DNA of 64,000 nucleotides from a bacterium BMS3Bbin03 (GCA_002898015.1 BDTM01000128.1:74418-138417); one strand, 5' to 3'; numbered from the stretch's first letter, positions 6,777 through 63,852 are shown. Notes: generated by a model not told the origin, from the sequence alone. A program made the numbers and translations.

Positions 6777-6808
6777 ATAGTTTTTTTTAATCATCAAAGT
6801 TTTACCAG

Positions 6809-30261: not shown

Positions 30262-30337
30262 TCTTTTAGTTTTCTCCTTGTATATAATTACTAAGTATTT
30301 AGATATCTATTTGCCGCAAAATCAAAAAGGCACCGGG

Positions 30338-32287
<1,950 letters not shown>

Positions 32288-32291
32288 TCAT

Positions 32292-32576
32292 TTAGATAAA
32301 AATTATGTCAGTTATCGCATCCACACCGATTCTTGTGTTTAAACGTTTAATAATACTCCCTTTCAAATGGATTAATTCAATTCGCCAGCCCGGACTATCC
32401 ACACGGACAAAAAGCTTTCCGTTAACCACTCTTTCGGGTTTCGATATTTTTGAAATTTTTTCGCCGACCGCTTCATTCCACACAACAAGTGCCTGACTCT
32501 GATAAACTTTTTTTTCGATGTGCAGATCCCGCAGCACTTTATTTATAACGGTCCCTAATTCATATGGACGTTTCAT
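32292..32576 (-). CDS. DUF721 domain protein (DciA-like, candidate helicase-loading factor)
   Basis: 94 aa. Conserved position between recF and gyrB. 4-nt overlap with recF. Confidence 0.55.
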   Translation of the reverse strand: MKRPYELGTVINKVLRDLHIEKKVYQSQALVVWNEAVGEKISKISKPERVVNGKLFVRVDSPGWRIELIHLKGSIIKRLNTRIGVDAITDIIFI

Positions 32577-33709: not shown

Positions 33710-33714
33710 CCGTA

Positions 33715-34914: not shown

Positions 34915-35056
34915 ATCTGCCTCCTAAAGATGCTTTTTCTTTTAATACATATTATAATTTATTTAAAATAACCAATTTTTAGATTAAATTCAAGAAAAAC
35001 TTCTTAACTATCTTTAAATAGAGATAAGATTAAATAACAATAATATTAATAAATCC

Positions 35057-35065
35057 TGTGGATAA
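35057..35065 (-). promoter_or_regulatory. DnaA box (perfect TTATCCACA on the minus strand)
   Basis: TGTGGATAA on the plus strand. Confidence 0.6.
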
Positions 35066-35212
35066 GTGGATAACGTGTGGTGATATTCGGTTTGCTTTTT
35101 AAAAATAAACAATTTAAAAAACCTCGTTTTGTTCCATTCGATGTGAAAAGAATGTGATAAAATTGTTTATAGATATCCTTTTTTTATTTTTGATTTAACG
35201 GCTGTTTAAAAT

Positions 35213-35221
35213 TGTGGATAA
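35213..35221 (-). promoter_or_regulatory. DnaA box (perfect)
   Basis: TGTGGATAA on the plus strand. Confidence 0.6.
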
Positions 35222-35251
35222 GAAAGCATTTGTTCACAAAGATTCACAAAG

Positions 35252-35260
35252 TTATCCACA
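35252..35260 (+). promoter_or_regulatory. DnaA box (perfect TTATCCACA)
   Basis: Exact consensus, 18 nt from the dnaA stop. Confidence 0.6.
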
Positions 35261-35277
35261 AATTTTGTGAATAACGT

Positions 35278-36642
35278 TTACTGCGCTTCCAGTTCGATTT
35301 TATCCTGGATGTCCTGAATCATTTCCCTGAATGTCGGCTCTGTTTGAATCCTTTTTTCGATGGTCTGAAATGCATGAATAACCGTTGTGTGATCCCGACC
35401 GCCGAAATGAAGCCCGATCGTTTTTAATGAATTGTGGGTCAGATTTTTCGATAAATACATCGAAATTTGACGGGCACCCACAATCTCTTTTTTGCGCGTT
35501 TTTGCACGAATAAGGTCTTCTTTAATTGAAAAATAATGACTGACAACACTTTGAATAAGCTCAATCGATAAACTTGTATTTTTCTTTTTGATTAAATCTT
35601 TCAGCACGTGTTTTGCCATTTTTAGGGTGATGTCTTCTCCGTTTAAAGAGGAATAAGCGAGAAGCTTAATGAGTGCTCCCTCCAATTGACGAATATTGGA
35701 GGTGATATTCGTGGCAATAAATTGCGTGATTTCATCCGGCAATTGGAGTTCATCTTGTTCGGCCTTCCTTTGCAGGATGGCAATACGGGTTTCCAAATCG
35801 GGGGGTTGAACGTCTGCGATTAATCCGGAGCTAAAACGGGAAATGAGTCGATTTTCTAATCCCGCCAATTCCTGCGGAGGACGATCTGATGAAAGAACGA
35901 TCTGTTTTCCTTTCTGCTGTAAATCATTAAAGGTATGAAAAAACTCCTCCTGTGTGCGTTCTTTATTAATAAAAAACTGGACATCATCCACCAGCAGAAT
36001 ATCAACATTTCTGTAATGCAGGCTAAATTCCGGCACACGGTTGTTTTTAATAGAGTTTATGAATTCCAATGTAAATTTTTCACTCGACACATATTGAATG
36101 CGCTTATTGGGATATTTTGTAGAAACATGGTTTCCGATGGCCTGAATTAAATGCGTTTTACCAAGTCCCACACCCCCATAAATCAGGAGCGGATTAAAGG
36201 AGGTCTTTCCGGGGGACTCCGCCACGGCAAATGAAGCGGCTCTCGCAAATTGATTGCTGTCTCCTTCCACGAAATTTTCGAACGTGTACCGGGAATTTAA
36301 ATACGAACCGTTGGAGTTAAATTGGATATAGGCATTCTGCTCGCCAAATTTTTTCTCTGAAGAGACCGGTTTAATCTTTTCATCGATGAGAACGGAATAG
36401 TTCAGCTTAATGGGTTTACCGAAGGTTTCATAAAGCGCCTGGTCAACGATGTCACGAAAATGTTCATCAATCCATTCGTAAAAGAACCGGCTGGGGACCT
36501 GAATCGTGAGCCGGCTATCGCTTAGTTTAAGCGGTACGACGGGTTTGAACCAGGTGCTAAAACTTTGGGGGCTGATTTTTGACCGGACAAAGTCAAGACA
36601 GGCCCCCCAGGTGTCTTCAAGAGTGTCGGTTGCACTTTCCAT
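35278..36642 (-). CDS. dnaA: Chromosomal replication initiator DnaA
   Basis: AAA+ Walker A GGVGLGKTHL and C-terminal helix-turn-helix (box-binding) domain. The N-terminus MESATDTLEDTWGACLDFVRSKISPQSFSTWF aligns with DnaA domain I. The ORF track extends to 36675 (MCCIIGIMKVF...). Confidence 0.93.
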   Translation of the reverse strand: MESATDTLEDTWGACLDFVRSKISPQSFSTWFKPVVPLKLSDSRLTIQVPSRFFYEWIDEHFRDIVDQALYETFGKPIKLNYSVLIDEKIKPVSSEKKFGEQNAYIQFNSNGSYLNSRYTFENFVEGDSNQFARAASFAVAESPGKTSFNPLLIYGGVGLGKTHLIQAIGNHVSTKYPNKRIQYVSSEKFTLEFINSIKNNRVPEFSLHYRNVDILLVDDVQFFINKERTQEEFFHTFNDLQQKGKQIVLSSDRPPQELAGLENRLISRFSSGLIADVQPPDLETRIAILQRKAEQDELQLPDEITQFIATNITSNIRQLEGALIKLLAYSSLNGEDITLKMAKHVLKDLIKKKNTSLSIELIQSVVSHYFSIKEDLIRAKTRKKEIVGARQISMYLSKNLTHNSLKTIGLHFGGRDHTTVIHAFQTIEKRIQTEPTFREMIQDIQDKIELEAQ

Positions 36643-36675
36643 AAATACCTTCATGATTCCAATAATACAACACAA

Positions 36676-36933
36676 TAATCATTAATATTTCTTCACAGTT
36701 GTTGTTTGTTTAGTTCGTTGAAGATGAAAGGATTAAAAGGCTATTAAATAACTTTTCCACAATTTATCCACAAACCGCTGACCACCTTTTGCAGTCTCAA
36801 ATATAAAACTATTTTCGTAAAAATCAATTAATTTATTTATAAAAAAAACTTGATTTTTTACGATTTTTAATATTATATTTAGAGTTATTACCCAAAACGC
36901 TAAGTAAAAGAAAAACATACTGAAGGAGATTTT
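36676..36933. other. oriC, upstream half (dnaA-rpmH intergenic) with two DnaA boxes
   Basis: TTTTCCACA at 36753-36761 (1 mismatch) and TTATCCACA at 36764-36772 (perfect), in an AT-rich context. Confidence 0.6.
36850..36879 (+). promoter_or_regulatory. Candidate promoter for rpmH (TTGATT-18-TATATT)
   Basis: -35 at 36850-36855, -10 at 36874-36879. The GAAGGAG RBS precedes the ATG at 36934. Confidence 0.35.
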
Positions 36934-37089
36934 GATGAAACGCACTTTTCAACCGAGCAATCGAAAACGCCGGAATAAGCATGGTTTCATGGAAAGGATG
37001 TCGACCACAGCGGGTCGGGATGTGTTAAAAAGAAGGAGAGCGAAGGTCCGCAAGAAGTTGACGGTGAGCGATGAATACACAACAAAATA
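36934..37089 (+). CDS. rpmH: 50S ribosomal protein L34
   Basis: Hand translation gives [51 protein letters not shown] (51 aa). The L34 signature is MKRT(F/Y)QPS..KR...HGF. It is absent from the ORF track because it is shorter than 60 aa. Confidence 0.9.
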
Positions 37090-37125
37090 GTGATCCGCAT
37101 TTGCGCAAAAAGAAGGTTTAAATGT

Positions 37126-37440
37126 GTGATTAATCAAAAGTTGAGAAAAAAAGACATTCTTCGGGGAAAAGCCTCTTATGATGAAATCTTTACATCGGGC
37201 AGGAAAGCTAAAGGGCGGCGGGTGACATTGTTCTGGGTTTCTTCTGAAAAGTCGCAAATGGGTGTCGCCGTGAGTCGACATTATAAACGAGCTGTGGATA
37301 GAAATCGTATGAAACGCTATATTCGGGAGATTTATCGAAAAAACAGGGGGTGGTTTGAAAAAAAAAAGTGGTTTTTTATATTCGCAAAACAAAAGAAAAT
37401 CCCGGCTATTGGGATCTCTATTATGATATTTCAAATTTAA
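37126..37440 (+). CDS. rnpA: Ribonuclease P protein component
   Basis: [18 protein letters not shown]...[13 protein letters not shown] is typical of RnpA. The start codon is uncertain. The choices are GTG 37090 (overlapping the rpmH stop), GTG 37126 or TTG 37141. Confidence 0.7.
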
Positions 37441-37456
37441 AAGGGCTCTTGGACGA

Positions 37457-37669
37457 ATGTTAAAAAAAGGTGTTATATTTCTAATCAAAATATACAAAAC
37501 ATTATTTTCACCTTTTTTTCCTCCTTCTTGCAGATTTTATCCGACATGTTCCACATACAGCATTCAGGCATACGCAAAATACAATTTTTTCAAAGCGACA
37601 TACTTATCCCTCTGGCGGATTTTAAGGTGTAATCCTTTTAATAAAGGCGGATATGATCCATTACCGTAA
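37457..37669 (+). CDS. yidD: Membrane protein insertion efficiency factor YidD
   Basis: 70 aa containing the invariant YidD core FYPTCS.Y. Confidence 0.85.
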
Positions 37670-37696
37670 ATTCATAATAGAAACATAAGGGAAATC

Positions 37697-39541
37697 ATGA
37701 AAAAAGACACCATTATTGCGTTCTTAATTATTGGAATTATTTTAATTTTTACACAAACCTCGTACTATAAAAAATTGGTGATGCCGAATGCCCAGCCGGT
37801 CAAACAAAGCCGGACTACGGAAGATACGCTGAGAAGAGAACAGCCTGTCGCAAAACCGGCCGAAAAAGAAAGAATCGTTGTCCCCGCAGAAAAAAAAGTG
37901 CAGGAGAAGAAGAAGCCGTCTGCCATAAGTATCAATAGAAATAATATATTAGAAGGAATTGTCTCCGGATATGCCGTTCAGGGAAAACCCAAAGTGATCA
38001 CAATTGAAACGGATTTGTACGAAGCAAAACTGTCTTCACGGGGCGGCACCATCATGAGCTGGAAATTAAAAAAATATAAAAATTACCAGGGCAAACAGGT
38101 TCAATTAATTGCGGACAAGGGAAAAGGCGACCTTTCACTGTCGTTTTTTGTAAACAACGATACCATTAATTTCGGAAAGGTAAATTATGATTTGCAGGTC
38201 GAAAACAATCCGATGAGCGATACGTTGGTTATTCTCAATCAGGACCATCCCACCGCCACAATTTTTGGAAAAGTGCTTTTAAATGATGGGAAGGAAATTG
38301 TTAAAAAATACACCTTTTTTTATAACAAATATAATTTCAACTTTCAGGTCAAATTAGATGGGTTTGATAATTGGGTAAACAACAAAAGCTACTACTTGTC
38401 CTGGAAATCGGGACTTCTGCCGACGGAAAAGAGAATTCACGATGATGAGGGGTATGCAAAAGTTTATATGATGCTTGGCAAAGAATTGGATGAATTCGCC
38501 ATAGGAAACAAGAGGGAGTACAAAAAGAAAAAGATTACCGGCTCCGTGGTTTGGGGAGATATCAGAACAAAATATTTTACGATGGCCATTATCTCAAAAG
38601 AAAAAGAGGGAAGAGGGGCAATTATTGAAGGGAGAGGCATTCCGCTCACAAAGAAAAATGTGATTAAACGGTATTCCATCACAATCGAAATGCCTTTAAA
38701 TTCCGGCAATATCACTTCGGACAATTTTACAGTTTTTATTGGTCCCCTTGAATACAATACCGTCCGAAAATTAGGTGTTAAACTGGACAAAATCATCATG
38801 TCGTCGGGCTGGTACGAACGCTTATTCCGTCCGTTTAGCATTGCCATTTTAGTTTCATTTAAATTTCTGCACAAATTTATTCCGAATTACGGGTGGGTCA
38901 TTGTCCTTTTCTCCATTCTGATAAAAATACTGGTTTATCCTCTGACCCATAAAAGTTATGTGTCTATGAAGAAAATGCAGCTTGTTCAGCCCAAAATGGC
39001 CGAATTGAAAGAAAAATACAAAAGCGACCCCCAGCGCATGAATAAAGAGACCATGAAGCTGTATAAAAGCTATGGGGTTAATCCGATGGGGGGGTGTCTC
39101 CCGTCCCTGCTGCAGATGCCTCTTTTAGTGGGACTCTTTATCGTTTTCCGGTCAACGATAGAATTGAGGGGTGCGCCGTTTATTTTCTGGATAAATAATC
39201 TTTCCATGCCGGATACGGTGGCCACATTGCCGTTTTCCTTACCCATGTTCGGAAATGCAATCAATGTGCTGCCGATTCTGATGGGGATCACCATGTTTTT
39301 TCAACAGAAAATGACCACACAAGACCCGAAGCAGAAATCATTGACATATTTGATGCCCATTTTCTTTGTATTGTTATTTAATACGTTTCCGTCCGGTTTG
39401 AATCTTTATTACACACTCTTTAATCTGTTTACCATTGTTCAGCAGCATCTGATCAAACCGGATGTCGTTCAATTAAAAGCCGTCGAAAAAAAGCAGACAA
39501 AACAAAACGTAAGGCAAAAAAGCCATCGACCCAGAAAGTAA
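37697..39541 (+). CDS. yidC: Membrane protein insertase YidC
   Basis: 614 aa. N-terminal TM helix, large periplasmic domain and C-terminal five-TM core (KMQLVQPKMAELKEKY, GGCLPSLLQMPLL). Basic C-terminal tail. Confidence 0.9.
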   Translation: MKKDTIIAFLIIGIILIFTQTSYYKKLVMPNAQPVKQSRTTEDTLRREQPVAKPAEKERIVVPAEKKVQEKKKPSAISINRNNILEGIVSGYAVQGKPKVITIETDLYEAKLSSRGGTIMSWKLKKYKNYQGKQVQLIADKGKGDLSLSFFVNNDTINFGKVNYDLQVENNPMSDTLVILNQDHPTATIFGKVLLNDGKEIVKKYTFFYNKYNFNFQVKLDGFDNWVNNKSYYLSWKSGLLPTEKRIHDDEGYAKVYMMLGKELDEFAIGNKREYKKKKITGSVVWGDIRTKYFTMAIISKEKEGRGAIIEGRGIPLTKKNVIKRYSITIEMPLNSGNITSDNFTVFIGPLEYNTVRKLGVKLDKIIMSSGWYERLFRPFSIAILVSFKFLHKFIPNYGWVIVLFSILIKILVYPLTHKSYVSMKKMQLVQPKMAELKEKYKSDPQRMNKETMKLYKSYGVNPMGGCLPSLLQMPLLVGLFIVFRSTIELRGAPFIFWINNLSMPDTVATLPFSLPMFGNAINVLPILMGITMFFQQKMTTQDPKQKSLTYLMPIFFVLLFNTFPSGLNLYYTLFNLFTIVQQHLIKPDVVQLKAVEKKQTKQNVRQKSHRPRK

Positions 39542-53430: not shown

Positions 53431-56061
53431 ATGAAACCTCTCTCCGGAAGGCCGGTTTTTTTTCTGGTGCTGATCGCGGTAATTTCGATTTTCACTTTTC
53501 AAAAACAAATTATTTTCGCTCAACCTGCCCGCCCGGAAATTGTTTCTCCAAATGAATTTTTAAACGGAAAATTTGAAAAAAGATTTACGCCTGCCTCAGA
53601 AGTGGCGGCCTATTGTCAACGGCTTGCCGGCACGTCGGAACGGGTGATGCTCCGGACGTACGGAAGGACCCCGGAAGGCCGGATTTTATCCGTGCTGATC
53701 ATAAGTTCGCCGGAAAATTTAAAAAATCTTGAGCAAATTCGCGCGGACAATCTGCGGTTAACCCGGCCGCGGAAAGCGCGGTCCGTTTCGGAATTAGAGG
53801 CGATTTTCCAAAACAATCCGGTTATTGTCTGGTTAAGTTACAACGTGCACGGTTCGGAAGCCAGCGGTTCGGAGGTCGCGATGAAAGTCGCTTACACATT
53901 GGCCGGCGCGAGGGACCGGAAAACAGAGCTTCTGTTGAAACACGCCGTTGTGATCATTGACCCCATGCTGAACCCGGACGGCCGCGATCGCTACGTGAAT
54001 TGGTTTAATTCGGTTGTGGGTGATTCGGCGAATTCCAATCCTGAGAGTGTGGAACACCATCCCCCCTGGCCGGGCGGCCGGTTTAATCATTACTTGTTTG
54101 ATCTAAACCGGGATTGGGCCTGGGGGACGCAGCCCGAAACGCAGGCGCGGGTGCGTTTATTCCGCCGGTGGATGCCGGAAGTCCATGTGGATTTCCACGA
54201 GATGAACTACAATTCCACTTATTTTTTCTTTCCGTCTACCAGACCGAGAAATCCGGATATTCCGCCCAGTCTTTTCCGCTGGGCGGCCGTGTTCGGGCGT
54301 GAAAATGCAAGGGCATTTGACCGGCACGATTATCTTTACTACACAAAAGAAGGGTTCGATTTGTACTACCCGGGCTACGGTGATTCCTGGCCGAGTTTTA
54401 ACGGCGCCGTCGGAATGACCTACGAGCAGGCGGGCGGCGGCGGATCCGGTGTGCTGGTCCGGCAGACGGACGGCAGCCTGCTTTCACTGCGGGATCGAAT
54501 CGCCCGCCACACATTGAGTTCGTTCACCACAATTCAAACGGCGGTCAAATACAGGAAAAAGCTCCTTCGGGATTTTTACACCTTTTGGGAAAAAAGCCTG
54601 GCGCGTGCAAAACAATCCGGACTGAAAGCGGTCATCATTTCACCCACGCAGGATTTACAAAAGTTATCGGATTTTGTGGCCTTGTTGGAACGCCAGGGCA
54701 TTGAAGTCAAACGGGCACGGGCGGATTTTCGGCTTAAAAATGTGCATCCGTACGGCAGTCACCGGAAAGTGCGGCGAAAATTTCAAGCGGGCAGTTTGAT
54801 AATCGACATGCAGCAGCCCCATTACTATCTGGCAAAAGCGCTGCTGTCGCCTGAAATCCCCGCACCCGACACGCTCTATTTTTATGATATCGTCTCCTGG
54901 TCTCTGCCGTTCGCTTTTCAACTGCCGGCCGCCTGGACGGAAAATGAGCCTGAAGTTTCCGCCGGAAAAATCACGGCGGCGGAAATACTTCAGAACAAAG
55001 AAAAATTCCCGTTTGAAAAAGGGAAAGCTTATCTTATTCCCTGGGACAATCTGGCGAGTGTCAATGTCCTTTCCCGAATCTTTCAGAAAAATCTGAAAGT
55101 GCGGGTGGCCACGAAGCCATTCACCCTTCAGACGAATTTGGGTAAAAGAGCATTTAAGCGGGGCACATTGATTGTTTTGAGAGGGGACAATTCAGGGGAC
55201 AAATCGTTTTTTAAAAAGGTGAAAGACTGCCTTACCGGCACGCCCGCCCCGTTTTTTATCGCGCAGACCGCCCTGGCGGAAAAGGGGTTCGACCTGGGGT
55301 CGCCCCACAAGAAATTGCTCAAGAAACCGAAAATTGCCGTTGTTCGAGGTGCACCGGTGGTGCCGACGGCATTGGGTGCTGTCCGGTACTGGGTGGAACA
55401 GCGGGCCCATTTTCCGGTAACGGACATTTCCATCGGTCAGGTGAAATCCGGTCATCTGAAAGATTTCAATGTGTTAATCCTGCCGGATGATTACGGAAAA
55501 GGCTACAGCGCAAAAATCGACAGCGCCTCCGCCGGAAAATTGAAGGATTGGATTAAAAACGGCGGGACACTTATCGGTATCGACGGCGGCGCCGAATTTG
55601 CAAGCGGATCGCAGTGTAAACTGGCTTCGATCAAAATAAGGGTTGAAAAAAAGGAAAAGGACGAAACTCAAAAATCCTTCAGATTTCGTACTCTGGAGGA
55701 AAAGGAAAAATCCCAGTGGGAAAATCGTATTCCGGGCACCATTTTAAAGGTGACGCTGGACACCACACACCCGCTTGGATTCGGTTATTCCGGTTTGGCT
55801 TACGTTTTAAAAACAAATAAACTTTTTTTAGTCCCCTCTCAAAGCGGAAACAATGTCGGCGTTTATTTGCCCGGGGCGAAAGTGAGCGGATTCTTATCCA
55901 AAAAAAATGAAACCCGATTGATGAAATCGGTGTTTCTATATGAAGAGCGGGTGGGTAAAGGGCATATCATTTTGTTTGCGAGTGATCCGCTTTTCCGGGG
56001 TTTTTGGGAGGGTCCGGTGAAGCTGTTTTTTAATGCCGTCTTTATTGAGCCGGGGATGTAA
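53431..56061 (+). CDS. Secreted M14 zinc carboxypeptidase with a C-terminal class-I-glutamine-amidotransferase-like (ThuA/DJ-1-like) domain
   Basis: M14 HxxE zinc motif NVHGSEASGSE. C-terminal region FNVLILPDDYG...LKDWIKNGGTLIGIDGGAEFA. Confidence 0.65.
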   Translation: MKPLSGRPVFFLVLIAVISIFTFQKQIIFAQPARPEIVSPNEFLNGKFEKRFTPASEVAAYCQRLAGTSERVMLRTYGRTPEGRILSVLIISSPENLKNLEQIRADNLRLTRPRKARSVSELEAIFQNNPVIVWLSYNVHGSEASGSEVAMKVAYTLAGARDRKTELLLKHAVVIIDPMLNPDGRDRYVNWFNSVVGDSANSNPESVEHHPPWPGGRFNHYLFDLNRDWAWGTQPETQARVRLFRRWMPEVHVDFHEMNYNSTYFFFPSTRPRNPDIPPSLFRWAAVFGRENARAFDRHDYLYYTKEGFDLYYPGYGDSWPSFNGAVGMTYEQAGGGGSGVLVRQTDGSLLSLRDRIARHTLSSFTTIQTAVKYRKKLLRDFYTFWEKSLARAKQSGLKAVIISPTQDLQKLSDFVALLERQGIEVKRARADFRLKNVHPYGSHRKVRRKFQAGSLIIDMQQPHYYLAKALLSPEIPAPDTLYFYDIVSWSLPFAFQLPAAWTENEPEVSAGKITAAEILQNKEKFPFEKGKAYLIPWDNLASVNVLSRIFQKNLKVRVATKPFTLQTNLGKRAFKRGTLIVLRGDNSGDKSFFKKVKDCLTGTPAPFFIAQTALAEKGFDLGSPHKKLLKKPKIAVVRGAPVVPTALGAVRYWVEQRAHFPVTDISIGQVKSGHLKDFNVLILPDDYGKGYSAKIDSASAGKLKDWIKNGGTLIGIDGGAEFASGSQCKLASIKIRVEKKEKDETQKSFRFRTLEEKEKSQWENRIPGTILKVTLDTTHPLGFGYSGLAYVLKTNKLFLVPSQSGNNVGVYLPGAKVSGFLSKKNETRLMKSVFLYEERVGKGHIILFASDPLFRGFWEGPVKLFFNAVFIEPGM

Positions 56062-56062: not shown

Positions 56063-56566
56063 ATGCTTTCGGTTTTAGGAATGATCCTTTTCTGGCTGGT
56101 TCTGCTTGCGGGGATCGCTGTCATTCCTTTTGGTATTGCCGGCACATTCATCATTGTGGGGGACACTTTGGTGTACGGCTTACTTACACAGTTTAGTAAA
56201 TTTACAATCGGATTTGTCGGCATCCTGTTGGTCATTTCGGTCCTCGTTGAAGGAGCTGAGTTTGTTTTAGGGGCGTGGGCGGCTAAAAAATACGGTTCCT
56301 CCTCCTGGGGAATGTGGGGGGCTATTTTGGGCGGATTTTTCGGAGCCATCTGGTTTACGCCGGTCGCGCCGCCTTTCAGCACACTTCTGGGCGCTTTTAT
56401 CGGGGCGTTTCTGGGTGCCTTTTTGCTGGAAGTGCTGCACGAACGAAACGTTCAAAAAGCTTTGAAAGTGGGGTGGGGCGCCTTTTTAGGCGCCGTCAGC
56501 GGAAAGATTTTGAAAATTGTCGCGGCCGTCGGGATGATTGTGGCGATCGGGATTCAGGTGTTTTAG
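56063..56566 (+). CDS. DUF456-like small membrane protein
   Basis: Start at ATG 56063 (MLSVLGMILFWLVLLAG...). Four hydrophobic helices with Gly-rich GxxxG packing motifs. Confidence 0.55.
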   Translation: MLSVLGMILFWLVLLAGIAVIPFGIAGTFIIVGDTLVYGLLTQFSKFTIGFVGILLVISVLVEGAEFVLGAWAAKKYGSSSWGMWGAILGGFFGAIWFTPVAPPFSTLLGAFIGAFLGAFLLEVLHERNVQKALKVGWGAFLGAVSGKILKIVAAVGMIVAIGIQVF

Positions 56567-56573
56567 GGTGAAA

Positions 56574-57254
56574 ATGTTAAAAGATTTGAAAATAAAAATT
56601 CTTATTATGTTTGTAATTGCTTTAGGAACAGTTACTTGTGTTTCAGCCGCAGAGCCTGCAAAAGCGTTTACGATCGCTCGCGTCTGGTACCAGGGCGGCG
56701 GTGACTGGTACAACGACCCATCCGTTATTCCGAATCTTTTGAAATATATTGCCGGTGCAACCGGCATGAGAGTGGCGACCACCGAAGCCCGGATCAAGCT
56801 CACGGACGAGAGGCTTTTTTCGTATCCCATTTTGTACTTGACCGGACACGGGAATATTGTGTTCTCTGAAACGGAGGTTCGTAATCTCCGAAAATATTTA
56901 ATACACGGCGGATTTCTGTACGCCGACGATGATTATGGAATGGACAAATATTTTCGGCGGGAAATTAAAAAGGTTTTTCCGGGAAAAAAATTGGTCGAAC
57001 TGCCGCGCTCACACAGCATTTACCACATTCGTTTCAATTTTCCGAAGGGGCTGCCCAAAACACACGAACATTATCCCGGGCCTCCCCGCGGCTACGGAAT
57101 TTTTTACAACGGACGAATGGTGGTTTATTACACATACAACACCAACATTTCCGACGGCTGGGCCGACCCGCACGTGCACAACGATCCTGAACCGGTACGC
57201 ATTCAGGCGTTGAAAATGGGTGTCAATATTGTTATCTGGGCATTGTTCAATTAA
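56574..57254 (+). CDS. Secreted DUF4159-like protein (GATase1/ThuA-like fold, no catalytic Cys)
   Basis: Start at ATG 56574 (MLKDLKIKILIMFVIALGTVTCVSA, a signal peptide). ILYLTGHGNIVFSE...LIHGGFLYADDDYG motif. Confidence 0.5.
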   Translation: MLKDLKIKILIMFVIALGTVTCVSAAEPAKAFTIARVWYQGGGDWYNDPSVIPNLLKYIAGATGMRVATTEARIKLTDERLFSYPILYLTGHGNIVFSETEVRNLRKYLIHGGFLYADDDYGMDKYFRREIKKVFPGKKLVELPRSHSIYHIRFNFPKGLPKTHEHYPGPPRGYGIFYNGRMVVYYTYNTNISDGWADPHVHNDPEPVRIQALKMGVNIVIWALFN

Positions 57255-57256
57255 AC

Positions 57257-60200
57257 ATGAACCAACAAAAATCACAAACCTATTATACCAGGATTTTACA
57301 AAAGCTTCACCTGTACAGACGGAAAAAGCGCACCACGCTTTTTTTAACGGGTTTGTTTCGCTTTTGGGCTTACGAAGGTGCGTTTATTCTTTTTTTGCTG
57401 GTGCTGGAGGCGCTTTTTCAATTTCCCCCGGCTGTCCGGCAGGCGCTTTTGGGAGTGTTCGTTCTGGGAACACTCCTTTGTCTGGCCGGGACGTTTTTTG
57501 CGGCCGGAAGATTTCCCTGGAGCAAGTCTCTATTTTCGGATGACCGGCTGGCCGGTGAAGCAGGAGAAGCCTTTCCGGATATCAGAGATCAATTGGTAGA
57601 TGCCCTTCAAATTATTCGAAATCTTTCGCAAAACAAAGAAAACTACTCGCCTGACCTGGCCGAAGCTTCCCTGAAAAGCGTTTACGAGAGAATTAAAAGT
57701 AAAGATTTTCAGTCGCTTGTCTCCAAAAGACCGCTGTTTCAATCCGTTCGAAATTTCTCGATTGTGGTGGTTTTCTTTACCTTTTCGGCACTCCTTTTTA
57801 ATCGGCCGCTTATGCAGAGTGTGGTTCATTTTTCACACCCGGGACAATCGTTTAAAGAGAAAGCCATTGAAGCGATTCGGGTTACACCGGGCGATTGGCA
57901 ATGCCTTACGGGAGACACATTACTTGTGGCTGTTCGGATTCAGGGAAAATTTAACCGGCCGATCGAGATTTTCTGGAAAGAACAATCGAAAAAGAGGGTT
58001 CAATCGAAAATACTCCGCCCGGATTCTTCACAATCCTACCATTTTCAATTGGCGCATTTGAAAGAAAACCTGGTGTACTCTGTGAAAGCCGGTAAAGAGA
58101 AAACCCGGGATTTTACGGTTACAGTTGAAAAGCGCCCCATGGTGAGGAGTCTGCGGGTCGAGCTGATTTTTCCGGCTTACACGGGCTTACCCTCTCGAAT
58201 ACTGGAAGAAAACCAGGGGGAAATTACGGCCCTCAGGGGCACGCGGGTGCGTTTAAAAATCAGGGCGAACAAAGGACTTTCAAAAGCAAAAGTTGTTTTT
58301 AAACATCAAAGACCGCTGAAATTACGGATACGGAACCGCGAGGCCGGCGGCGCGTTTCGGGTGATGCGGGACGATTCCTATTTTGTCCGGTTGGAGGACA
58401 CACAGGGACACGGAAACGCAGAGCCGATTCATTACAAGATTGCGATGGTGACCGACCAGCCGCCGGTGGTGGAAATTACACAGCCTGGCCAGGATGTGGA
58501 TTTGAGTGAAGAGATGATTTTACCTCTGCAGGTGCAGGCTGAAGATGATTTTGGCTTCTCGAGCGCCGAGCTCCGCTACAGGGTGCATCACGCGGTGGTT
58601 GTGACAAAACCGGACACCAATTTTCACGGGTTTCCGTTGATTCTGCCGGAGGCGGGCGGCACGAAAATTCAATTCGACTTCACCTGGAGACTGGGCAATT
58701 TGCAGATGCTTCCTGGGGATTATGTGGAATATTTTGTAAAAATTCTGGACAATGACGCGGTTGCGGGGTTTAAACCGGCTGTTTCCAGGACATTTCTGGC
58801 GCGCTTTCCATCCATGGCTGAAATCTACCGGGAAACAACCTCTGCGCAGGACGAGTCGATACAGGAGCTGGAAGAATTGGTTCGTGAGAGCGGCGACCTC
58901 AAAAAAGAAGTGGATAAAATCACGGATGAGATGAAACGAAATCCGGAAATGAACTGGACGAAGAAGCAGGAATTAAAAGAATTGGCTGAAAAGCAGCAGC
59001 GCCTGGCGCAAAAAGCCGAAAAGTTAAAAAACAAGCTGAATGAAGCGATGGACCGCCTGCAGCAAAATAATATGCTCAGCGAAGAGACGATTCAGAAATA
59101 TGCAGAGGTTCAAAAATTGTTTGACGAGGCGCTCACACCCGAGATGAAGAAAATGCTGCGGGATCTGCAAAAAGCCCTGGAAAAAATGGACTCCAAAAAA
59201 CTGGACCGGGCGGGAAATAAATTTAAAATGAATGAAGATAATTTTCAGAAATCTCTTGAACGAACACTGAATTTACTCAAGCGCCTGCGAATCGAGCAAA
59301 AATTAGATCAGGCCAAAAAGATGGCTGAAAATTTAAGAGCCCGGCAAAAGGCGGTGAACAAATCGCTTGAAAAGGCCTCTCGCCGGGAAAAAGAAGACCT
59401 TCAAAAATTGGAAAAGAAAATAGAAGAAGATACACAGCAACTCAAAGAAGCGCTGAAAAAGCTGCAGCAGGAAATGAGGGAATTTCCGGATATGCAGGCC
59501 GCCAAACTGAAACCTTCCGTCGACAAGGCGCAGGAATCGGCCGAAAATATGCAGAAAATGGGGCAGGAACTTCAGGCGGACAATCAGCAGGGCGCCCGGC
59601 AGGCGGGGAGCAAAAGTGAACAGAATTTGCAGCAGTTAAGCCAGATGCTGGGCAAGATGAAGCAGGGGATTGTGAACAAACAGAAAAAAGAAGTCATGAA
59701 GCAGATGGCCCGATCCTCGTCTGAGCTGCTTCGTCTTTCGGAGGAACAGGAAGCTCTGCAGCGCCGGACCCGGAAATTATCGTCCATGAGCCCCAAATTT
59801 AATCAGATGGCCGAGAAACAATTGAGCCTGTTAAATCGTTTAAATCAAATTACGAAAGAGCTTTACCGGCTTTCGCAAAAGACCTTTTTTGTGACGCCGG
59901 AAATTGGAAAAGCCGTCGGCAAAGGGATGGGAAATATGCGGCAATCGCTGTCGCAGATGGAAGAGCGCAACGGCCGCGGCGCATCGGCGCACCAGAAATC
60001 GGCGATGGGCGCCTTAAATGAAGCCGTACTGCACATTCAGCAATCCATGAAAAGCCTTTCATCGGCATCATCCTCGGTCGGAATGGAAGAGTACCTGAAG
60101 CAGTTGCAGAAAATGGCGGGCCGGCAGCAGGGGCTTAATCAGCAGACCTTGCAATTGAGTCTGAAAATGGCGCAGCAGGGACGGCTGACCGAAAGTCAGC

Positions 60201-60643
60201 AGGGCCGTTTGAGACGGCTGGCGGCGCAGCAGCGCCAATTGGCGAAAGCCATGAATGAATTGCAAAAGCAGTACGGCGGCCATTCGAATGTGCTGGGAAA
60301 CATGCAGGAGATGGCGCGGCAAATGGACGAGGTGGCGAAACGAATGGCGTTAAGCCAATTGGATCGTGAGACGATTCAGCGGCAGAAAAAGATTTTGTCC
60401 CGGCTTCTGGATGCACAGCGTTCGGTGCGTCAGAGAGATTTCAGCAAACGGAGAAAATCCGAAGCGGGGAAAAACTTTGTCGCCAGGAATCCGGGGGCTC
60501 TGCCGGTGGAAATTTTGCAAAAACGGGATCGATTACGGGAAGACATTCTGCGGGCCAAAAAAGCCGGCTATTCGGAGGACTTCCTGAATTTGATTCAGTC
60601 CTACTACGAGGCACTTTATGAAGTTAAGCGTGAGAAAAAGTAA
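57257..60643 (+). CDS. Large membrane-anchored protein (1128 aa) with a beta-rich domain followed by a roughly 600-aa Gln/Lys-rich coiled coil (DUF4175/BatA_N-like architecture)
   Basis: Two N-terminal TM helices (BatA_N-like), a middle beta-rich region and a long low-complexity coiled coil (KLKNKLNEAMDRLQQNN..., QQGRLRRLAAQQRQLAKAMNELQKQ). It starts 3 nt after the DUF4159-like gene. Confidence 0.55.
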   Translation: MNQQKSQTYYTRILQKLHLYRRKKRTTLFLTGLFRFWAYEGAFILFLLVLEALFQFPPAVRQALLGVFVLGTLLCLAGTFFAAGRFPWSKSLFSDDRLAGEAGEAFPDIRDQLVDALQIIRNLSQNKENYSPDLAEASLKSVYERIKSKDFQSLVSKRPLFQSVRNFSIVVVFFTFSALLFNRPLMQSVVHFSHPGQSFKEKAIEAIRVTPGDWQCLTGDTLLVAVRIQGKFNRPIEIFWKEQSKKRVQSKILRPDSSQSYHFQLAHLKENLVYSVKAGKEKTRDFTVTVEKRPMVRSLRVELIFPAYTGLPSRILEENQGEITALRGTRVRLKIRANKGLSKAKVVFKHQRPLKLRIRNREAGGAFRVMRDDSYFVRLEDTQGHGNAEPIHYKIAMVTDQPPVVEITQPGQDVDLSEEMILPLQVQAEDDFGFSSAELRYRVHHAVVVTKPDTNFHGFPLILPEAGGTKIQFDFTWRLGNLQMLPGDYVEYFVKILDNDAVAGFKPAVSRTFLARFPSMAEIYRETTSAQDESIQELEELVRESGDLKKEVDKITDEMKRNPEMNWTKKQELKELAEKQQRLAQKAEKLKNKLNEAMDRLQQNNMLSEETIQKYAEVQKLFDEALTPEMKKMLRDLQKALEKMDSKKLDRAGNKFKMNEDNFQKSLERTLNLLKRLRIEQKLDQAKKMAENLRARQKAVNKSLEKASRREKEDLQKLEKKIEEDTQQLKEALKKLQQEMREFPDMQAAKLKPSVDKAQESAENMQKMGQELQADNQQGARQAGSKSEQNLQQLSQMLGKMKQGIVNKQKKEVMKQMARSSSELLRLSEEQEALQRRTRKLSSMSPKFNQMAEKQLSLLNRLNQITKELYRLSQKTFFVTPEIGKAVGKGMGNMRQSLSQMEERNGRGASAHQKSAMGALNEAVLHIQQSMKSLSSASSSVGMEEYLKQLQKMAGRQQGLNQQTLQLSLKMAQQGRLTESQQGRLRRLAAQQRQLAKAMNELQKQYGGHSNVLGNMQEMARQMDEVAKRMALSQLDRETIQRQKKILSRLLDAQRSVRQRDFSKRRKSEAGKNFVARNPGALPVEILQKRDRLREDILRAKKAGYSEDFLNLIQSYYEALYEVKREKK

Positions 60644-60648
60644 ACGGA

Positions 60649-62517
60649 ATGTTAACGAAAAACAAAAAAACGTTTAAAGCCATTGTACGGATTTTATTTT
60701 TATGGCTGATTCTGGCCGCTTTGATGACCCCGTCCGTGTTCGCACAGCCCACCGGTGTTGAGGAAAGCCGGTTCCGGCTGGCGCGTCAGTTTGAACAGTT
60801 GGGTCAATACCGGCAGGCTGCGGATCTCTACAAAAAATTATATACCGGTTACCCTAAAAATCTGACGTATTTTGAAGGGTTCCGCCGGAACTTATTAAGA
60901 CTCAAGAAATATCCGGAACTGGCAGTCATCATTCAGGATCGCTTGCGGACGCGTCCCGCGGACATTGGGCTTGAGACACAATTGGGCGATGTGTATTTCA
61001 AGATGGGCGACGAAGTTCGCGCCTACCGGGTGTGGAGCGGCATTTTGCGGAAGCATCCCGGCCAAACGGCCGTTTACCGTGTTGTCGCCAGTGTGATGCT
61101 GCAAAACCGCCTGTTCGACAGGGCGATTGCCGTTTATCTTCGCGGGCGGAAAGCATCGAATAAGCCGGCCCAATTTGCGCTGGAACTGGCCCAGCTTTAT
61201 ATGTTCCGGCAAACGTACCCGGCTGCCGTGGATGAGTATCTGCGCTTTTTGAGGCAGAAACCTTACCAATTGTTTTTTGTCCGGAATCAAATTGCCCGGC
61301 TGCCGTTGAACGAAAACAGCTATCCGGCAGTTGAGAAGGAAATCCGTAAGTGGGTTAAAAAATATCCGAAAGATTACACCCTTCGCAAATTGTTGGCCGG
61401 ATTTTACCAGAGTTTCGGGAACTACGAATCGGCGCTTAATGAAATTCTGGCGCTTAAAGGATCGTCCGCCCGGAAAGGTGTGAAAAAGGGGTTTCCTGCC
61501 GCGGATTTGTACCAGTTTGCGCTGGACACATACCGTGAAAAGGAGTACAAAATTTCGGAAAAAGCCTTTCGCAAATTACTGGAGGGATTTCCGGATTTTT
61601 CGCAGAAAGATCGCGTGACGTACTACCTTGCCGACATTTCGTACCAGACAAAGGATTTTGATCAGGCAAAGCAATTGTACCGGCAGGTGATCCGGCGCTT
61701 TCCGAAATCGAGGTGGTCGCTGCAGGCGTCTCTTCGCCTCGGGAGCATTTTTCTGAATCAGGAGAATAATCCCGCCGAAGCCATTGTTTATTTTGAAAGG
61801 ATTGTTCGGAATTTCCCCGGAACGCGGCAGCAGATAGAAGCCACTTTCAGCCTGGCGGATTGCTACCTGTCTGAAGGAAATCTGGGAGAGGCCGTTTCGA
61901 CACTGCAGAATTCTTTAAAGAATCCCTCGCTAAATTCCGGCAGGGATCGGTCGCTGCAGGATGAGGCTTTGTTCAGGCTGGCTCAGGTGAAATTCTACGG
62001 GAAAGATTTCAAGGGGAGTCTGAAAAACATCAATCAGATATTGGACAACGCGTTTGGAAAATATGACAGTCCGTATGTGAACAATGCTCTGGATTTGGAA
62101 CTCATCATTCAGGAAAATGAAAAAAAGTATTTATCTTCACTGAAATTATTTGCTTCCGGGATGTACCTGGCACGCCGGAATCTGTACGGTGCGGCGGTCG
62201 ACACCTTGTTAAAAGCGGCAGCAGAGAATGACCAGGCGGCTTTGGCGGACCGGGCATTGCTGGAAGCGGGGCGAATCAAAGAGAAGATGAAAGATTGGTA
62301 CGGCGCCATAAAGATTTATCAAATGCTGGTGGGCACGTACTCGCAGAGTGTTTATGCAGATGTAGCGCTCGACAGGGAGGGAAAGATTTATGAAAACGAC
62401 ATCAAAGATTTCGAGAAAGCCAGACAGACGTACGAATCTATTTTAATTCAATATCCAAACAGTGTTTTGGCAGATGAGCTCCGGAAAAAAGTCAGACAAT
62501 TAGAAGGTCAGCCATGA
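60649..62517 (+). CDS. Secreted TPR-repeat protein
   Basis: Signal peptide plus about 12 TPR-like repeats. It starts 6 nt after the upstream gene and overlaps the downstream gene by 4 nt. Confidence 0.65.
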   Translation: MLTKNKKTFKAIVRILFLWLILAALMTPSVFAQPTGVEESRFRLARQFEQLGQYRQAADLYKKLYTGYPKNLTYFEGFRRNLLRLKKYPELAVIIQDRLRTRPADIGLETQLGDVYFKMGDEVRAYRVWSGILRKHPGQTAVYRVVASVMLQNRLFDRAIAVYLRGRKASNKPAQFALELAQLYMFRQTYPAAVDEYLRFLRQKPYQLFFVRNQIARLPLNENSYPAVEKEIRKWVKKYPKDYTLRKLLAGFYQSFGNYESALNEILALKGSSARKGVKKGFPAADLYQFALDTYREKEYKISEKAFRKLLEGFPDFSQKDRVTYYLADISYQTKDFDQAKQLYRQVIRRFPKSRWSLQASLRLGSIFLNQENNPAEAIVYFERIVRNFPGTRQQIEATFSLADCYLSEGNLGEAVSTLQNSLKNPSLNSGRDRSLQDEALFRLAQVKFYGKDFKGSLKNINQILDNAFGKYDSPYVNNALDLELIIQENEKKYLSSLKLFASGMYLARRNLYGAAVDTLLKAAAENDQAALADRALLEAGRIKEKMKDWYGAIKIYQMLVGTYSQSVYADVALDREGKIYENDIKDFEKARQTYESILIQYPNSVLADELRKKVRQLEGQP

Positions 62518-63788
62518 AATTCTGGAAAATTGTTTTTGCCGTATTTTTTATGATTTTGATGGGGGGATTTGGAAACCTGCGTGCCCAGAAAATACTAATT
62601 CCGATGGATTTAACACAGACCGACCATTTGAAGGCGTACGGCGTAGCCTACTGGACCCTGGAGCGCAACATTAATGTGGAGTGGCTTTTGAACTATCGGG
62701 GCGGCTCTTTTTTGACGGATTATTATCCTGAAATTGAACGGGAATTGCGCCTGCGGGGTGTGTCGTTTGAAAAAATCGGCGGTCCGGAAGTGGCTCAAAT
62801 CTACAGCACCATTCAATCCAACAATATGGATGTGGTCCTGCTGGAGAAAGCGCCGAAAATTGCCGTGTACACGCCGCCAAACAAGCGCCCCTGGGACGAT
62901 GCGGTGACGCTGGCATTGACTTACGCCGAAATTCCTTATACAAAAATATGGGACGCGGAGGTGGCGCACGGCGATCTCGAAAAATATGACTGGCTGCATC
63001 TGCATCACGAAGACTTTACCGGGCAGTACGGAAAGTTTTACGCCAGTTTTCGAAATGCGCCCTGGTATATCGAAGATGTGAGACGAAATGAAGCCATGGC
63101 CCGCAAACTGGGCTTTAAAAAGGTTTCGGAAGAGAAGAAATTTATTGCCCGGATCATTCAGGATTTTGTGCGAAGGGGCGGGTTTTTATTCGCCATGTGT
63201 TCAGCAACCGACACGATCGACATTGCCCTGGCCGCCCAAAATGTGGATATTGTGCCGGCTGTGTTCGACGGCGATCCGCCGGACCCGAATTACCGGGCAA
63301 AATTGGACTATTCAAAGACGTTTGCGTTTACCAATTTTAGACTGGAATTGAACCCTTATGTTTACGAATATTCAGACATTGACATTCCGCCCAGTTATGC
63401 GGCGCCTTTGAAAGGCCCGGAGGCGGAAGCCTTCACGCTGTTTGACTTTTCGGCAAAATACGATCAGGTGCCGACCATGCTCACGCAGGATCATGTGAAT
63501 ATTATCAAAGGTTTTATGGGGCAGACAACCGCCTTTAACCGTAAGCGGATTAAACCGTATGTGACCATTTTGGGGGAAGTACCGGGCACCGACATGGTGA
63601 AATATATCCACGGGAATCTTGGTAAGGGCACTTTTACGTTCCTGGGCGGTCACGATCCGGAGGATTATCAGCACGCTGTAGGCGATCCGCCCACACAGCT
63701 CTCTCTGCACCGCAATTCACCGGGATACCGTTTAATTTTGAATAATGTTCTGTTTCCGGCGGCCAAAAAGAAGAAACAAAAAACTTAG
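62514..63788 (+). CDS. Secreted GATase1/ThuA-like protein with a candidate nucleophile Cys (paralogue of the DUF4159-like protein)
   Basis: Signal peptide. YDWLHLHHEDFTGQ...RGGFLFAMCSATD parallels ILYLTGHG...HGGFLYADDDYG of the 56574 gene. Lys-rich C-terminus. Confidence 0.45.
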   Translation: MKFWKIVFAVFFMILMGGFGNLRAQKILIPMDLTQTDHLKAYGVAYWTLERNINVEWLLNYRGGSFLTDYYPEIERELRLRGVSFEKIGGPEVAQIYSTIQSNNMDVVLLEKAPKIAVYTPPNKRPWDDAVTLALTYAEIPYTKIWDAEVAHGDLEKYDWLHLHHEDFTGQYGKFYASFRNAPWYIEDVRRNEAMARKLGFKKVSEEKKFIARIIQDFVRRGGFLFAMCSATDTIDIALAAQNVDIVPAVFDGDPPDPNYRAKLDYSKTFAFTNFRLELNPYVYEYSDIDIPPSYAAPLKGPEAEAFTLFDFSAKYDQVPTMLTQDHVNIIKGFMGQTTAFNRKRIKPYVTILGEVPGTDMVKYIHGNLGKGTFTFLGGHDPEDYQHAVGDPPTQLSLHRNSPGYRLILNNVLFPAAKKKKQKT

Positions 63789-63793: not shown

Positions 63794-63822
63794 AATTCTT
63801 AATCGTGAAAAGAATTTTTTAT
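63794..63822 (+). terminator. Candidate intrinsic terminator
   Basis: AATTCTT-aatcgtgaa-AAGAATT followed by TTTTTAT. Confidence 0.4.
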
Positions 63823-63823: not shown

Positions 63824-63852
63824 TTGACAAAAGTCTTAAAAATTATTATTTT
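63824..63852 (+). promoter_or_regulatory. Candidate hrcA promoter (TTGACA-17-TATTTT)
   Basis: Consensus -35 at 63824-63829. -10 at 63847-63852. Confidence 0.4.

Follow-up and report, generated by a model that had tools for sequence, protein, structure and literature searches.

Four consecutive genes in the 64-kb window (the whole stretch of DNA analysed), encoding a DUF4159 protein (g2), a DUF4175-family giant (g3), a TPR protein (g4) and a highly conserved exported protein (g5), form the conserved core of an envelope gene cluster. Our preferred interpretation, to which we give about an even chance, is that this core supplies the extracytoplasmic half of a system for envelope maintenance of the MoxR/DUF58 type, similar to Bat and RL3499.

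The initial annotation described five tightly packed co-directional genes, beginning with a DUF456 gene (g1) and closed by a terminator. The five open reading frames and their spacing are real, with intergenic gaps, from g1 to g5, of +7, +2, +5 and −4 nt, the last being a 4-nt overlap between the g4 stop and the g5 start (Table 1). A Pfam profile search agreed with the DUF456, DUF4159, DUF4175 and TPR assignments and, as had been stated, none of the five proteins was assigned to a family of known function by Pfam or NCBIfam. The description as an envelope cluster was also borne out, with signal peptides on g2, g4 and g5 and a membrane anchor on g3. The limits of the unit had to be redrawn. The same close packing continues upstream through an M14 peptidase gene (g0, 1-nt gap), a 5'-nucleotidase gene and SurA-like genes to yidC at 37.7 kb; for this reason, spacing fails to delimit the cluster, which is part of 26 kb of closely packed genes that share a direction but are unrelated in function. 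The terminator proposed as the cluster end corresponds to an AT-only hairpin of 7 bp; 156 of 200 shuffled sequences folded equally well or better, and the terminator scan reported nothing at this hairpin, which argues against such a role. The g1 product matched DUF456 clearly (103 bits, cut-off 29.4, E 2e-29), but a homologue adjoins the cluster in only one of 81 related loci (L015), which speaks against its membership. Homologues of g0 were not found by phmmer (E ≤ 1e-5) in loci L001–L082; the C-terminal 316 aa of its product gave weak BPL_N, LBP_M and ThuA matches in a relaxed Pfam search, and the protein aligns weakly to g5 residues 108–228. Both g1 and g0 are mere neighbours, outside the conserved unit.

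Table 1. Features of the cluster and its surroundings (positions counted from the first nucleotide of the window).
Feature	Position	Strand	Basis or remark
g0, exported 876-aa M14-like peptidase with C-terminal GATase1-like domain	53431..56061	+	Pfam Peptidase_M14
g1, DUF456 four-helix membrane protein	56063..56566	+	Pfam PF04306; four hydrophobic segments
g2, exported DUF4159 protein, 226 aa	56574..57254	+	Pfam PF13709, full length
g3, DUF4175-family membrane protein, 1128 aa	57257..60643	+	Pfam PF13779, partial coverage
g3 membrane region	57347..57805	+	Kyte-Doolittle scan
g3, three tandem Ig-like beta-sandwich domains, residues ~205-520	57869..58816	+	Region to which the DUF4175 model aligns
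g3 residues 521-1128, Q/K/E/L-rich, Pro-poor	58817..60640	+	Composition and conservation profile
g4, exported TPR protein, 622 aa	60649..62517	+	Many TPR Pfam models; signal-like N-terminus
g5, exported 424-aa protein	62514..63788	+	No Pfam model covers this highly conserved family
g5 HLHHED, residues 162-167	62997..63014	+	Five of six positions invariant (H162, H164, H165, E166, D167)
g5 Cys229, candidate nucleophile	63198..63200	+	Between strand 224-228 and helix 231-240 (model); invariance of at least 98% across 82 sequences
g5 H380-D381-P382-E383	63651..63662	+	Invariant
Proposed terminator, a weak AT-rich hairpin with a T-run behind it	63794..63816	+	-3 kcal/mol, z 0.77

Gene order was compared across the 81 related loci. 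The order g2-g3-g4-g5 is kept in 20 of them, and two more retain only g3-g4-g5, one being cut by the contig end (L003) and the other having no detected g2 (L040); g3 was accordingly found in 22 loci and g2 upstream of it in 20. The carriers are MAGs labelled Neomarinimicrobiota, Latescibacterota, KSB1, Eisenbacteria, Krumholzibacteriota and Gemmatimonadota. The DUF4159–DUF4175–TPR–g5 order is conserved, recurring in 20–22 of the 81 loci and in several named phyla, relatives of Bacteroidetes. The TPR gene lies upstream of g5 in 55 loci, and TPR–g5 is the older pair; in 33 loci this pair occurs without g2-g3, and in 26 g5 is found alone. In Pedobacter g5 is solitary, and in Ignavibacteria it follows TPR-ClpX; therefore, g5 does not need g2 or g3.

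As had been reported, no MoxR (AAA_3), DUF58 or VWA gene, nor any BatA gene, was detected among the 56 largest non-overlapping ORFs covering the 64-kb window. The likeness to MoxR/Bat modules pointed out in the initial annotation nevertheless proved to be a good lead. A MoxR gene is located downstream of g5 in each of the four Latescibacterota loci, directly in three (L027, L031 and L034) and about 1.3 kb away in L040, and DUF58 follows MoxR in two of the four, the order in L031 being DUF4159-DUF4175-TPR-g5-MoxR(AAA_3)-DUF58. Because the Latescibacterota cluster adjoins MoxR, the cluster reads as part of a MoxR module, and this adjacency speaks against the earlier suggestion of a system distinct from such modules. 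Two of three distant relatives of the DUF4175 protein are likewise encoded beside MoxR, in the orders MoxR-DUF58-BatA (L084) and MoxR-DUF58 (L085). Taken together, the Latescibacterota adjacency and the surroundings of these relatives make the envelope half of a MoxR/Bat-type system the best reading of the cluster.

Outside Latescibacterota, none of the 17 loci with the full cluster has a MoxR, DUF58, VWA or BatA gene within about 10 kb; a dependence on MoxR may therefore be confined to certain lineages, or be lacking here. In an alternative that follows the initial annotation, the cluster is a self-contained periplasmic scaffold or stress system that works independently of MoxR, and the Latescibacterota adjacency is secondary. 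Such a system would agree with the lack of MoxR and DUF58 in the window, with the 17 of 20 full-cluster loci without an adjoining MoxR or DUF58, and with a cluster devoid of VWA/BatA proteins, which are the usual MoxR partners. However, we consider it unlikely in view of the position of MoxR in every Latescibacterota locus and of the DUF4175-family relatives located beside MoxR-DUF58 elsewhere. A second alternative, that two unrelated units happen to be adjacent (an ancient TPR–g5 pair that has a separate function, and a DUF4159–DUF4175 pair of MoxR modules, forming no common complex), appears still less probable. The loci in which TPR–g5 lacks g2-g3 or g5 is solitary are in line with it, as is the run of functionally unrelated genes surrounding the cluster, but the identical order of the four genes in at least six named phyla is not. 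Furthermore, MoxR-DUF58 in L031 lies on the g5 side and not beside g2-g3; the four genes are therefore bracketed as one unit.

The g3 product, deposited as a hypothetical protein (GBD94096), matched PF13779 with 65.5 bits (cut-off 27.3, E 3e-18), residues 294–479 aligning to profile positions 192–359 of 825, and its C-terminus gave a weak second match to positions 665–746. Instead of the two transmembrane helices assigned previously, the Kyte-Doolittle scan revealed three hydrophobic segments (residues ~31–55, ~60–82 and ~165–183) preceded by a basic N-terminus; according to the positive-inside rule, the loop of about 80 residues that separates segments two and three would be cytoplasmic. The BatA_N-like anchor attributed to this protein was not recovered, since its N-terminus gave no BatA_N match in Pfam even at E ≤ 10. 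The Ig-like domains were modelled with a pLDDT of 88.8. The C-terminal region of about 600 residues, previously described as Q/K-rich, has a composition that confirms this description; its conservation peaks near residues 1041–1080, it shows weak matches to SMC coiled coils, and it is presumably helical or coiled-coil, judging from these sequence features. We propose that g3 is an inner-membrane scaffold.

The g2 product, which starts with a hydrophobic segment (Kyte-Doolittle scan), matched PF13709 over profile positions 1–202 of 202 (215.7 bits, cut-off 25.9, E 6e-64) and is a sequence relative of the Haliangium ochraceum DUF4159 structure 4i66 (Hoch_4089; E 5e-8 over residues 42–224), a structural-genomics entry to which no function has been assigned. 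The g2 protein belongs to a GATase1-like family. It had been presented, together with g5, as one of two paralogues sharing a pair of motifs. The second motif does exist in both proteins, as GGFLYADD in g2 and GGFLFAMCSATD in g5, with an Asp in g2 at the position of the g5 Cys; the first is not common as written, this site being LYLTGHG in g2 and LHLHHED in g5. A profile-profile comparison aligned only 16 residues (probability 32%) and thus detected no family-level sequence relationship that would make g5 a paralogue of the DUF4159 protein; g2 and g5 have in common only the superfamily fold.

The g4 product was deposited as 'tol-pal system protein YbgF' and passes the cut-off of TIGR02795, a 119-position TPR model (93.9 bits, cut-off 90.1). 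The match behind this name is limited to an internal stretch of 113 of the 622 residues (286–398). The full-length CpoB model NF008068 failed (39.9, cut-off 383) and no tol or pal genes are present in the 64-kb window, so that a CpoB/YbgF identity is not supported.

The g5 product has more than 8000 homologues, with 59–77% identity across phyla, and matched no model in NCBIfam or, even at E ≤ 10, in Pfam, including ThuA, GATase and DJ-1. Comparison of its structure model revealed a GATase1-like alpha/beta fold whose closest neighbours are ThuA-like proteins, IFT52 and OST48, several of these families being, we assume, non-catalytic or not Cys-dependent. Identity to structures with the ThuA-like/class I glutamine amidotransferase-like fold (PDB 4e5v, 4jqs, 1t0b and 3rht) is 9–13%, and g5 differs from them in having a signal peptide, an invariant Cys, an additional N-terminal alpha/beta part and an insertion of about 55 residues before the elbow. 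The N-terminus of g5 shows a hydrophobic signal-like segment that ends in a conserved A-Q. In an alignment of 82 sequences, 99 positions were at least 98% invariant, among them C229, H380, D381, P382, E383, H162, H164, H165, E166 and D167. The Cys at an elbow-type position noted earlier was confirmed as Cys229, at a strand-helix junction. HLHHED is a possible metal or substrate site. The GGHDPED sequence resembles His-Pro-Glu, the triad motif of class I amidotransferases, and its H380–E383 segment lies in the C-terminal 40% of the model, which is poor (pLDDT < 50 for residues 283–339 and 370–424). Six relatives of about 500 residues carry the type IX secretion C-terminal sorting domain PF18962, which places the family outside the cytoplasm; at 39–47% identity, they retain both the Cys and GGHDPED. 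The g5 of the window has no PF18962 domain and ends in FPAAKKKKQKT, without a Pfam match.

From these features we predict that g5 is probably a Cys-based hydrolase. It could instead serve as a binding module without catalytic activity, comparable to the GATase1-like folds of IFT52/GldG-type or OST48 proteins, with structural or metal-binding roles for the invariant Cys and His; we find this somewhat doubtful, given the strand-Cys-helix position, the resemblance of GGHDPED to the amidotransferase motif, and the conservation of both in the secreted long forms. Many homologues are named 'asparagine synthetase B' in NCBI records, and this name is the sole support for such an activity, to which we assign a negligible probability. 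Since no Pfam or NCBIfam model matches, no Asn_synthase or Ntn-amidotransferase domain was detected in g5; in addition, it shows a signal-like N-terminus in place of a Cys2 nucleophile and a class I GATase-like fold, and some relatives are type IX secretion cargo. This identity was therefore rejected.

If the cluster is indeed part of a MoxR/DUF58-type system, a model can be proposed for the topology, physical interactions, catalysis and substrate of its proteins. Three helices would anchor g3 in the inner membrane, and its cytoplasm-facing loop could be the site of action of the MoxR-DUF58 pair where this is encoded; here, no such ATPase was detected in the 64 kb. The three Ig-like domains and the helical region of g3 would extend into the periplasm as a scaffold on which g2, exported and catalytically dead, and the exported g4 may dock, g4 in turn recruiting g5. 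The latter would be an exported GATase1-fold enzyme with Cys229 as nucleophile, a probable His380/Glu383 pair and the His-rich HLHHED site, and might hydrolyse an amide-type bond of a substrate in the envelope or on the surface that the entire FCB superphylum has in common. TPR–g5 would be an ancient pair, connected through g2-g3 with MoxR-type modules in some of the phyla.

Among known systems, the Acinetobacter baumannii division protein AdvA also has a DUF4175 annotation, with its DUF4175 domain and two transmembrane helices located upstream of residues 203–238 (PMC7481262). In g3, by comparison, it is the Ig-like and the C-terminal regions of the DUF4175 model that find a match, and orthology is unsupported. 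Another parallel is the Rhizobium leguminosarum operon RL3499–RL3502 (Vanderlinde et al. 2011), composed of MoxR, DUF58 and two membrane proteins, which we take to belong to the BatA_N/DUF4159 and DUF4175 (TIGR02302) families. Loss of this broadly conserved, MoxR-linked operon is reported to impair membrane integrity and cell morphology (PMC3893208; title cited in PMC5118466). Unlike the present cluster, it encodes the ATPase in cis and no TPR–g5 pair. The Bat (Bacteroides aerotolerance) or MoxR-DUF58-BatA-E operons of Bacteroides, Leptospira and Borrelia, the function of which is likewise unresolved (PMC3557215), differ from our window, which has no MoxR, DUF58, VWA or BatA_N genes; here DUF4159 forms an exported protein by itself, g5 belongs to a family not recognised as part of Bat systems, and g4, a TPR protein, scores 24.6 bits with the Leptospira BatC model (cut-off 175). 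In contrast, both are envelope-associated multi-gene modules with a TPR protein and with membrane proteins that have large extracytoplasmic parts; in addition, the cluster is contiguous with MoxR-DUF58 in Latescibacterota, and DUF4175 relatives lie beside MoxR-DUF58-BatA.

Five ORFs on the forward strand lie between 56.0 and 63.8 kb, as the initial annotation had them, and Pfam bore out the domain families it had proposed for the first four (g1 to g4). The genes follow one another at gaps of +7, +2, +5 and −4 nt. In the public records of bacterium BMS3Abin05 that contain the exact window proteins (GBD94094-97, on a 324-kb contig), three are hypothetical proteins and g4 is a 'tol-pal system protein YbgF'.

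Coordinates of the gene cluster and of other features in the window
Feature	Position	Strand	Description
g1	56063-56566	+	167 aa; Pfam DUF456
g2	56574-57254	+	226 aa; Pfam DUF4159, full length, E 6e-64
g3	57257-60643	+	1128 aa; Pfam DUF4175, E 3e-18, partial
g4	60649-62517	+	622 aa; broad set of TPR Pfam models
g5	62514-63788	+	424 aa; without Pfam or NCBIfam match
M14-like peptidase	53431-56061		876 aa, exported; C-terminal GATase1-like domain
Promoter-like site	63824-63852		TTGACA-17-TATTTT, in the spacer 3′ of g5
Replication-origin neighbourhood	27820-39541		dnaA, dnaN, recF, gyrB, gyrA on −; yidC, mnmE, mnmG, rsmG on +
Release-factor region	5586-9350		two ORFs (396, 379 aa) without Pfam match, then 386-aa eRF1-like release factor, baeRF_family10
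ORF next to Na+/H+ exchanger gene	25268-26455	−	395 aa; no Pfam match at E ≤ 1e-5

The limits proposed for the cluster did not hold. The hairpin at 63794, which had been read as a terminator, consists of a 7-bp AT-only stem of −3 kcal/mol (z = 0.77) and is missing from the output of a consensus terminator scan; it was discarded because its folding is insignificant, 156 of 200 shuffles folding equally well or better. The 3′ border is a ~130-nt AT-rich spacer, followed by a putative hrcA (assigned by eye), and HrcA is also found downstream in one relative. Tight spacing does not define the 5′ border either, since the same packing extends upstream past g1 through the M14-like peptidase (1-nt gap), a 5′-nucleotidase, three SurA-like isomerases, mfd, rsmG, mnmG and mnmE as far as yidC. 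In the neighbourhood of the origin, GC content falls to 0.38-0.40 at 32-38 kb, and the cumulative GC skew reaches its minimum at ~32-36 kb.

The C-terminal domain of the M14-like protein gave weak BPL_N, LBP_M and ThuA matches and no PDB relative by sequence; it aligns weakly to residues 108-228 of g5 (PKIAV..., ...GGTLIGI), with Asp at the position of the g5 Cys. Signal-peptidase I sites predicted by eye leave an N-terminal Gln in the genes at 50606 (AAA/QK), 51907 (VFG/QA), 53431 (IFA/QP), 60649 (VFA/QP) and 62514 (LRA/QK), g2 (VSA/AE) being the exception. An N-terminal Gln after signal cleavage, the 'Q-rule', has been described for exported proteins of Bacteroidetes; the predicted sites match it and would fit an FCB-group origin.

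Scanning a single genome of each species gave at least 597 loci with a g5 relative. The best 80 of these and one metagenome locus were compared, and gene orders were called with profile HMMs made from the window proteins and their orthologues. The order is kept in relatives: g2-g3-g4-g5 was observed in 20 of these 81 loci, carried by MAGs labelled Neomarinimicrobiota, Latescibacterota, KSB1, Eisenbacteria, Krumholzibacteriota and Gemmatimonadota. Two loci have g3-g4-g5 without g2 (L003, which is cut by a contig end, and L040, where no g2 was detected despite ~5.8 kb upstream of g3), 33 have g4-g5 without g2 or g3, and 26 have g5 without any of the three, contig ends also limiting some loci of the last two classes. 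The order is TPR-ClpX-g5 in Ignavibacteria and LepA-LepB-HemN-like-TPR-g5-YjbQ in Caldithrix, and in Pedobacter a solitary g5 has divergent genes on both sides. A ClpX gene lies between the TPR gene and g5 in L030 (6835-11254 of that locus) and in about 13 other Ignavibacteria-type loci. Unsupervised clustering of the neighbours in the 81 loci gave g2, g3, g4, ClpX (14 loci) and one downstream family (found in 11 loci at a median of +1.35 kb; a fumarylacetoacetate hydrolase gene occupies this place in L030) as recurrent partners of g5, and no other. A DUF456 homologue is adjacent in only one of the compared loci, so that g1 was dropped from the cluster, and no M14 peptidase homologue was detected in any. 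The gene orders, the rarity of DUF456 neighbours and the lack of M14 neighbours show that the conserved unit is g2-g5, TPR-g5 being the wider and older pair.

The family of g5 comprises more than 8000 homologues, many of which are named 'asparagine synthetase B' in public records. Nothing backs this name: the lack of any Pfam or NCBIfam match ruled out a real asparagine synthetase B (AsnB), and Pfam was empty even at E ≤ 10. A PDB sequence search with the g5 profile gave no match at the same threshold. An exhaustive representative search returned about a dozen full-length clusters at 50% identity and no bridge to any named family. Across the 81 loci, drawn from many phyla, g5 is 59-77% identical to the window protein, with 99 positions invariant to at least 98%. 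In the AF2 model, which is of medium quality (pLDDT 66, pTM 0.71; residues 283-339 and 370-424 poor), Cys229 is flanked by strand 224-228 and helix 231-240, a nucleophile-elbow position. The sequence GGHDPED (378-384) resembles the His-Pro-Glu motif of the class I amidotransferase superfamily, and HLHHED (162-167) is a further invariant His/acid cluster. A non-catalytic g5 seems somewhat unlikely to us; the elbow position of the Cys and the GGHDPED sequence speak against it.

The 420-residue forms of g5 end in a conserved Lys-rich tail (...FPAAKKKKQKT). In six of seven tested relatives of ~500 residues (P0121, P0125, P0130, P0131, P0133 and P0143), a type IX secretion C-terminal sorting domain replaces this tail or comes after it, and the Cys and GGHDPE/GHDP are kept in all five aligned long forms with this domain. 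Another relative, P0150, has lost both Cys and His. The sorting domains on the long relatives thus point to an extracytoplasmic family. Culturable Bacteroidota, among them Pedobacter and Mucilaginibacter, also have g5, which should allow tests by genetics and enzymology.

The view of g2 and g5 as paralogues sharing a pair of motifs was only partly sustained. GGFL[YF]A is common to both, but the other motif is not (LYLTGHG in g2, LHLHHED in g5), and the term paralogue was abandoned because profile-profile comparison (hhalign) aligned just 16 residues with a probability of 32%. At the position of the g5 Cys, g2 has Asp; its relative with a solved structure, 4i66, is uncharacterised. The DUF4175 match of g3 covers only residues 294-479, against profile positions 192-359 of 825. 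This protein had been described with two TM helices and a BatA_N-like anchor; three hydrophobic segments are present (~31-55, ~60-82 and ~165-183), and the N-terminal 200 residues gave no BatA_N match. The chain opens with a basic N-terminus and a hairpin of two helices, then has a loop of ~80 residues and the third helix. Gln, Lys and Leu each make up 12% of residues 521-1128, Glu 10% and Pro 1%. By the positive-inside rule, the large part of g3 would be periplasmic, in line with g2, g4 and g5, whose N-termini are signal-like. Residues 1-540 of g3, used as query in a word-indexed protein search, gave just 13 weak matches and missed known orthologues; the matches served solely to add rows to the alignment and to find distant loci. 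Regarding g4, it exceeds the TIGR02795 'YbgF' cut-off (93.9 vs 90.1 bits) solely through an internal TPR stretch of 113 residues and falls below the cut-offs of the full-length CpoB, BamD, PorW and BatC models, those of CpoB and PorW by so much that both identities were rejected. Its public name is likely an over-annotation of this 622-aa protein.

When 56 large ORFs that together span the whole window were scanned with Pfam, no MoxR (AAA_3 ATPase), DUF58, VWA or BatA domain was detected, in agreement with the initial annotation as regards MoxR, DUF58 and VWA. The resemblance to MoxR/Bat modules that it had noted was upheld, but the proposed distinctness from them was not, given that Latescibacterota loci and distant g3 relatives tie the cluster to MoxR. 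Three distant g3 relatives were looked up for gene context: one, in a Gemmatimonadetes locus, has the order MoxR-DUF58-BatA-[g3 relative], the second has DUF4175-TPR/peptidase-MoxR-DUF58, and the third is without MoxR. When MoxR and DUF58 queries from these loci were run by phmmer against all compared loci, all four Latescibacterota loci proved to have MoxR downstream of g5, directly 3′ in L027, L031 and L034 and at a distance of ~1.3 kb in L040, with DUF58 after it in L031 and L040. Pfam confirmed the order DUF4159-DUF4175-TPR-g5-MoxR(AAA_3)-DUF58 in L031, where suf genes follow. In the other 17 full-cluster loci, phmmer found no MoxR within ~10 kb. These 17 loci would suit an autonomous scaffold independent of MoxR, an unlikely reading in our judgement, set beside the four Latescibacterota loci and the two distant g3 relatives. 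That two unrelated units merely stand side by side would suit the 33 loci with TPR-g5 but no g2-g3 and the 26 with g5 alone; with g2-g3-g4-g5 recurring in at least six named phyla, and MoxR-DUF58 on the g5 side in L031, we regard it as very doubtful.

The genes present, their conserved order, the folds, the invariant residues and the adjacency to MoxR are observed, and for the reading built on them we consider the chances about even. In it, g2-g5 would form the envelope half of a system of the MoxR/DUF58 type, g3 would be a scaffold in the inner membrane, g2 and g4 would act as adaptors, and g5 would be an exported Cys-based amidohydrolase whose substrate would be common to the FCB superphylum; topology, contacts, catalysis and substrate are predictions. 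A fuller proposal, quite unlikely as it stands, is that the g5 family is an unrecognised exported Cys-His-Glu amidohydrolase of the FCB superphylum, possibly metal-assisted, and the enzymatic effector of MoxR/Bat-type envelope systems, held by a TPR adaptor on the inner-membrane DUF4175 scaffold or, in the long forms, released by type IX secretion.

In the literature searched, DUF4159 is mentioned only in a Pfam database paper and DUF4175 is treated only for AdvA; we found no description of the g2-g5 gene order or of the g5 family, and no paper on BMS3Abin05. MoxR-DUF58-Bat modules are widespread, and their mutants show envelope, stress and morphology phenotypes; to our knowledge, their membrane partners have not been credited with any biochemical activity. 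The invariant Cys, the His-rich sites and the physical MoxR-DUF58 linkage in one phylum make g5 a concrete candidate enzyme, from a very large and extremely conserved family that has no Pfam or NCBIfam model and is wrongly named in public records. Within this conserved set of uncharacterised genes, experiments would be worthwhile on the g5 family and its physical link to MoxR. According to PMC3893208 and PMC5118466 (citing Vanderlinde et al. 2011), MoxR operons of this subfamily have a reported role in membrane integrity and morphology in Rhizobium, and Bat proteins have no demonstrated function (PMC3557215). The window cluster lacks, in cis, the ATPase, DUF58 and VWA genes by which a Bat operon is defined and is therefore not one; its relation to MoxR/Bat-type modules is the linkage found in one phylum.
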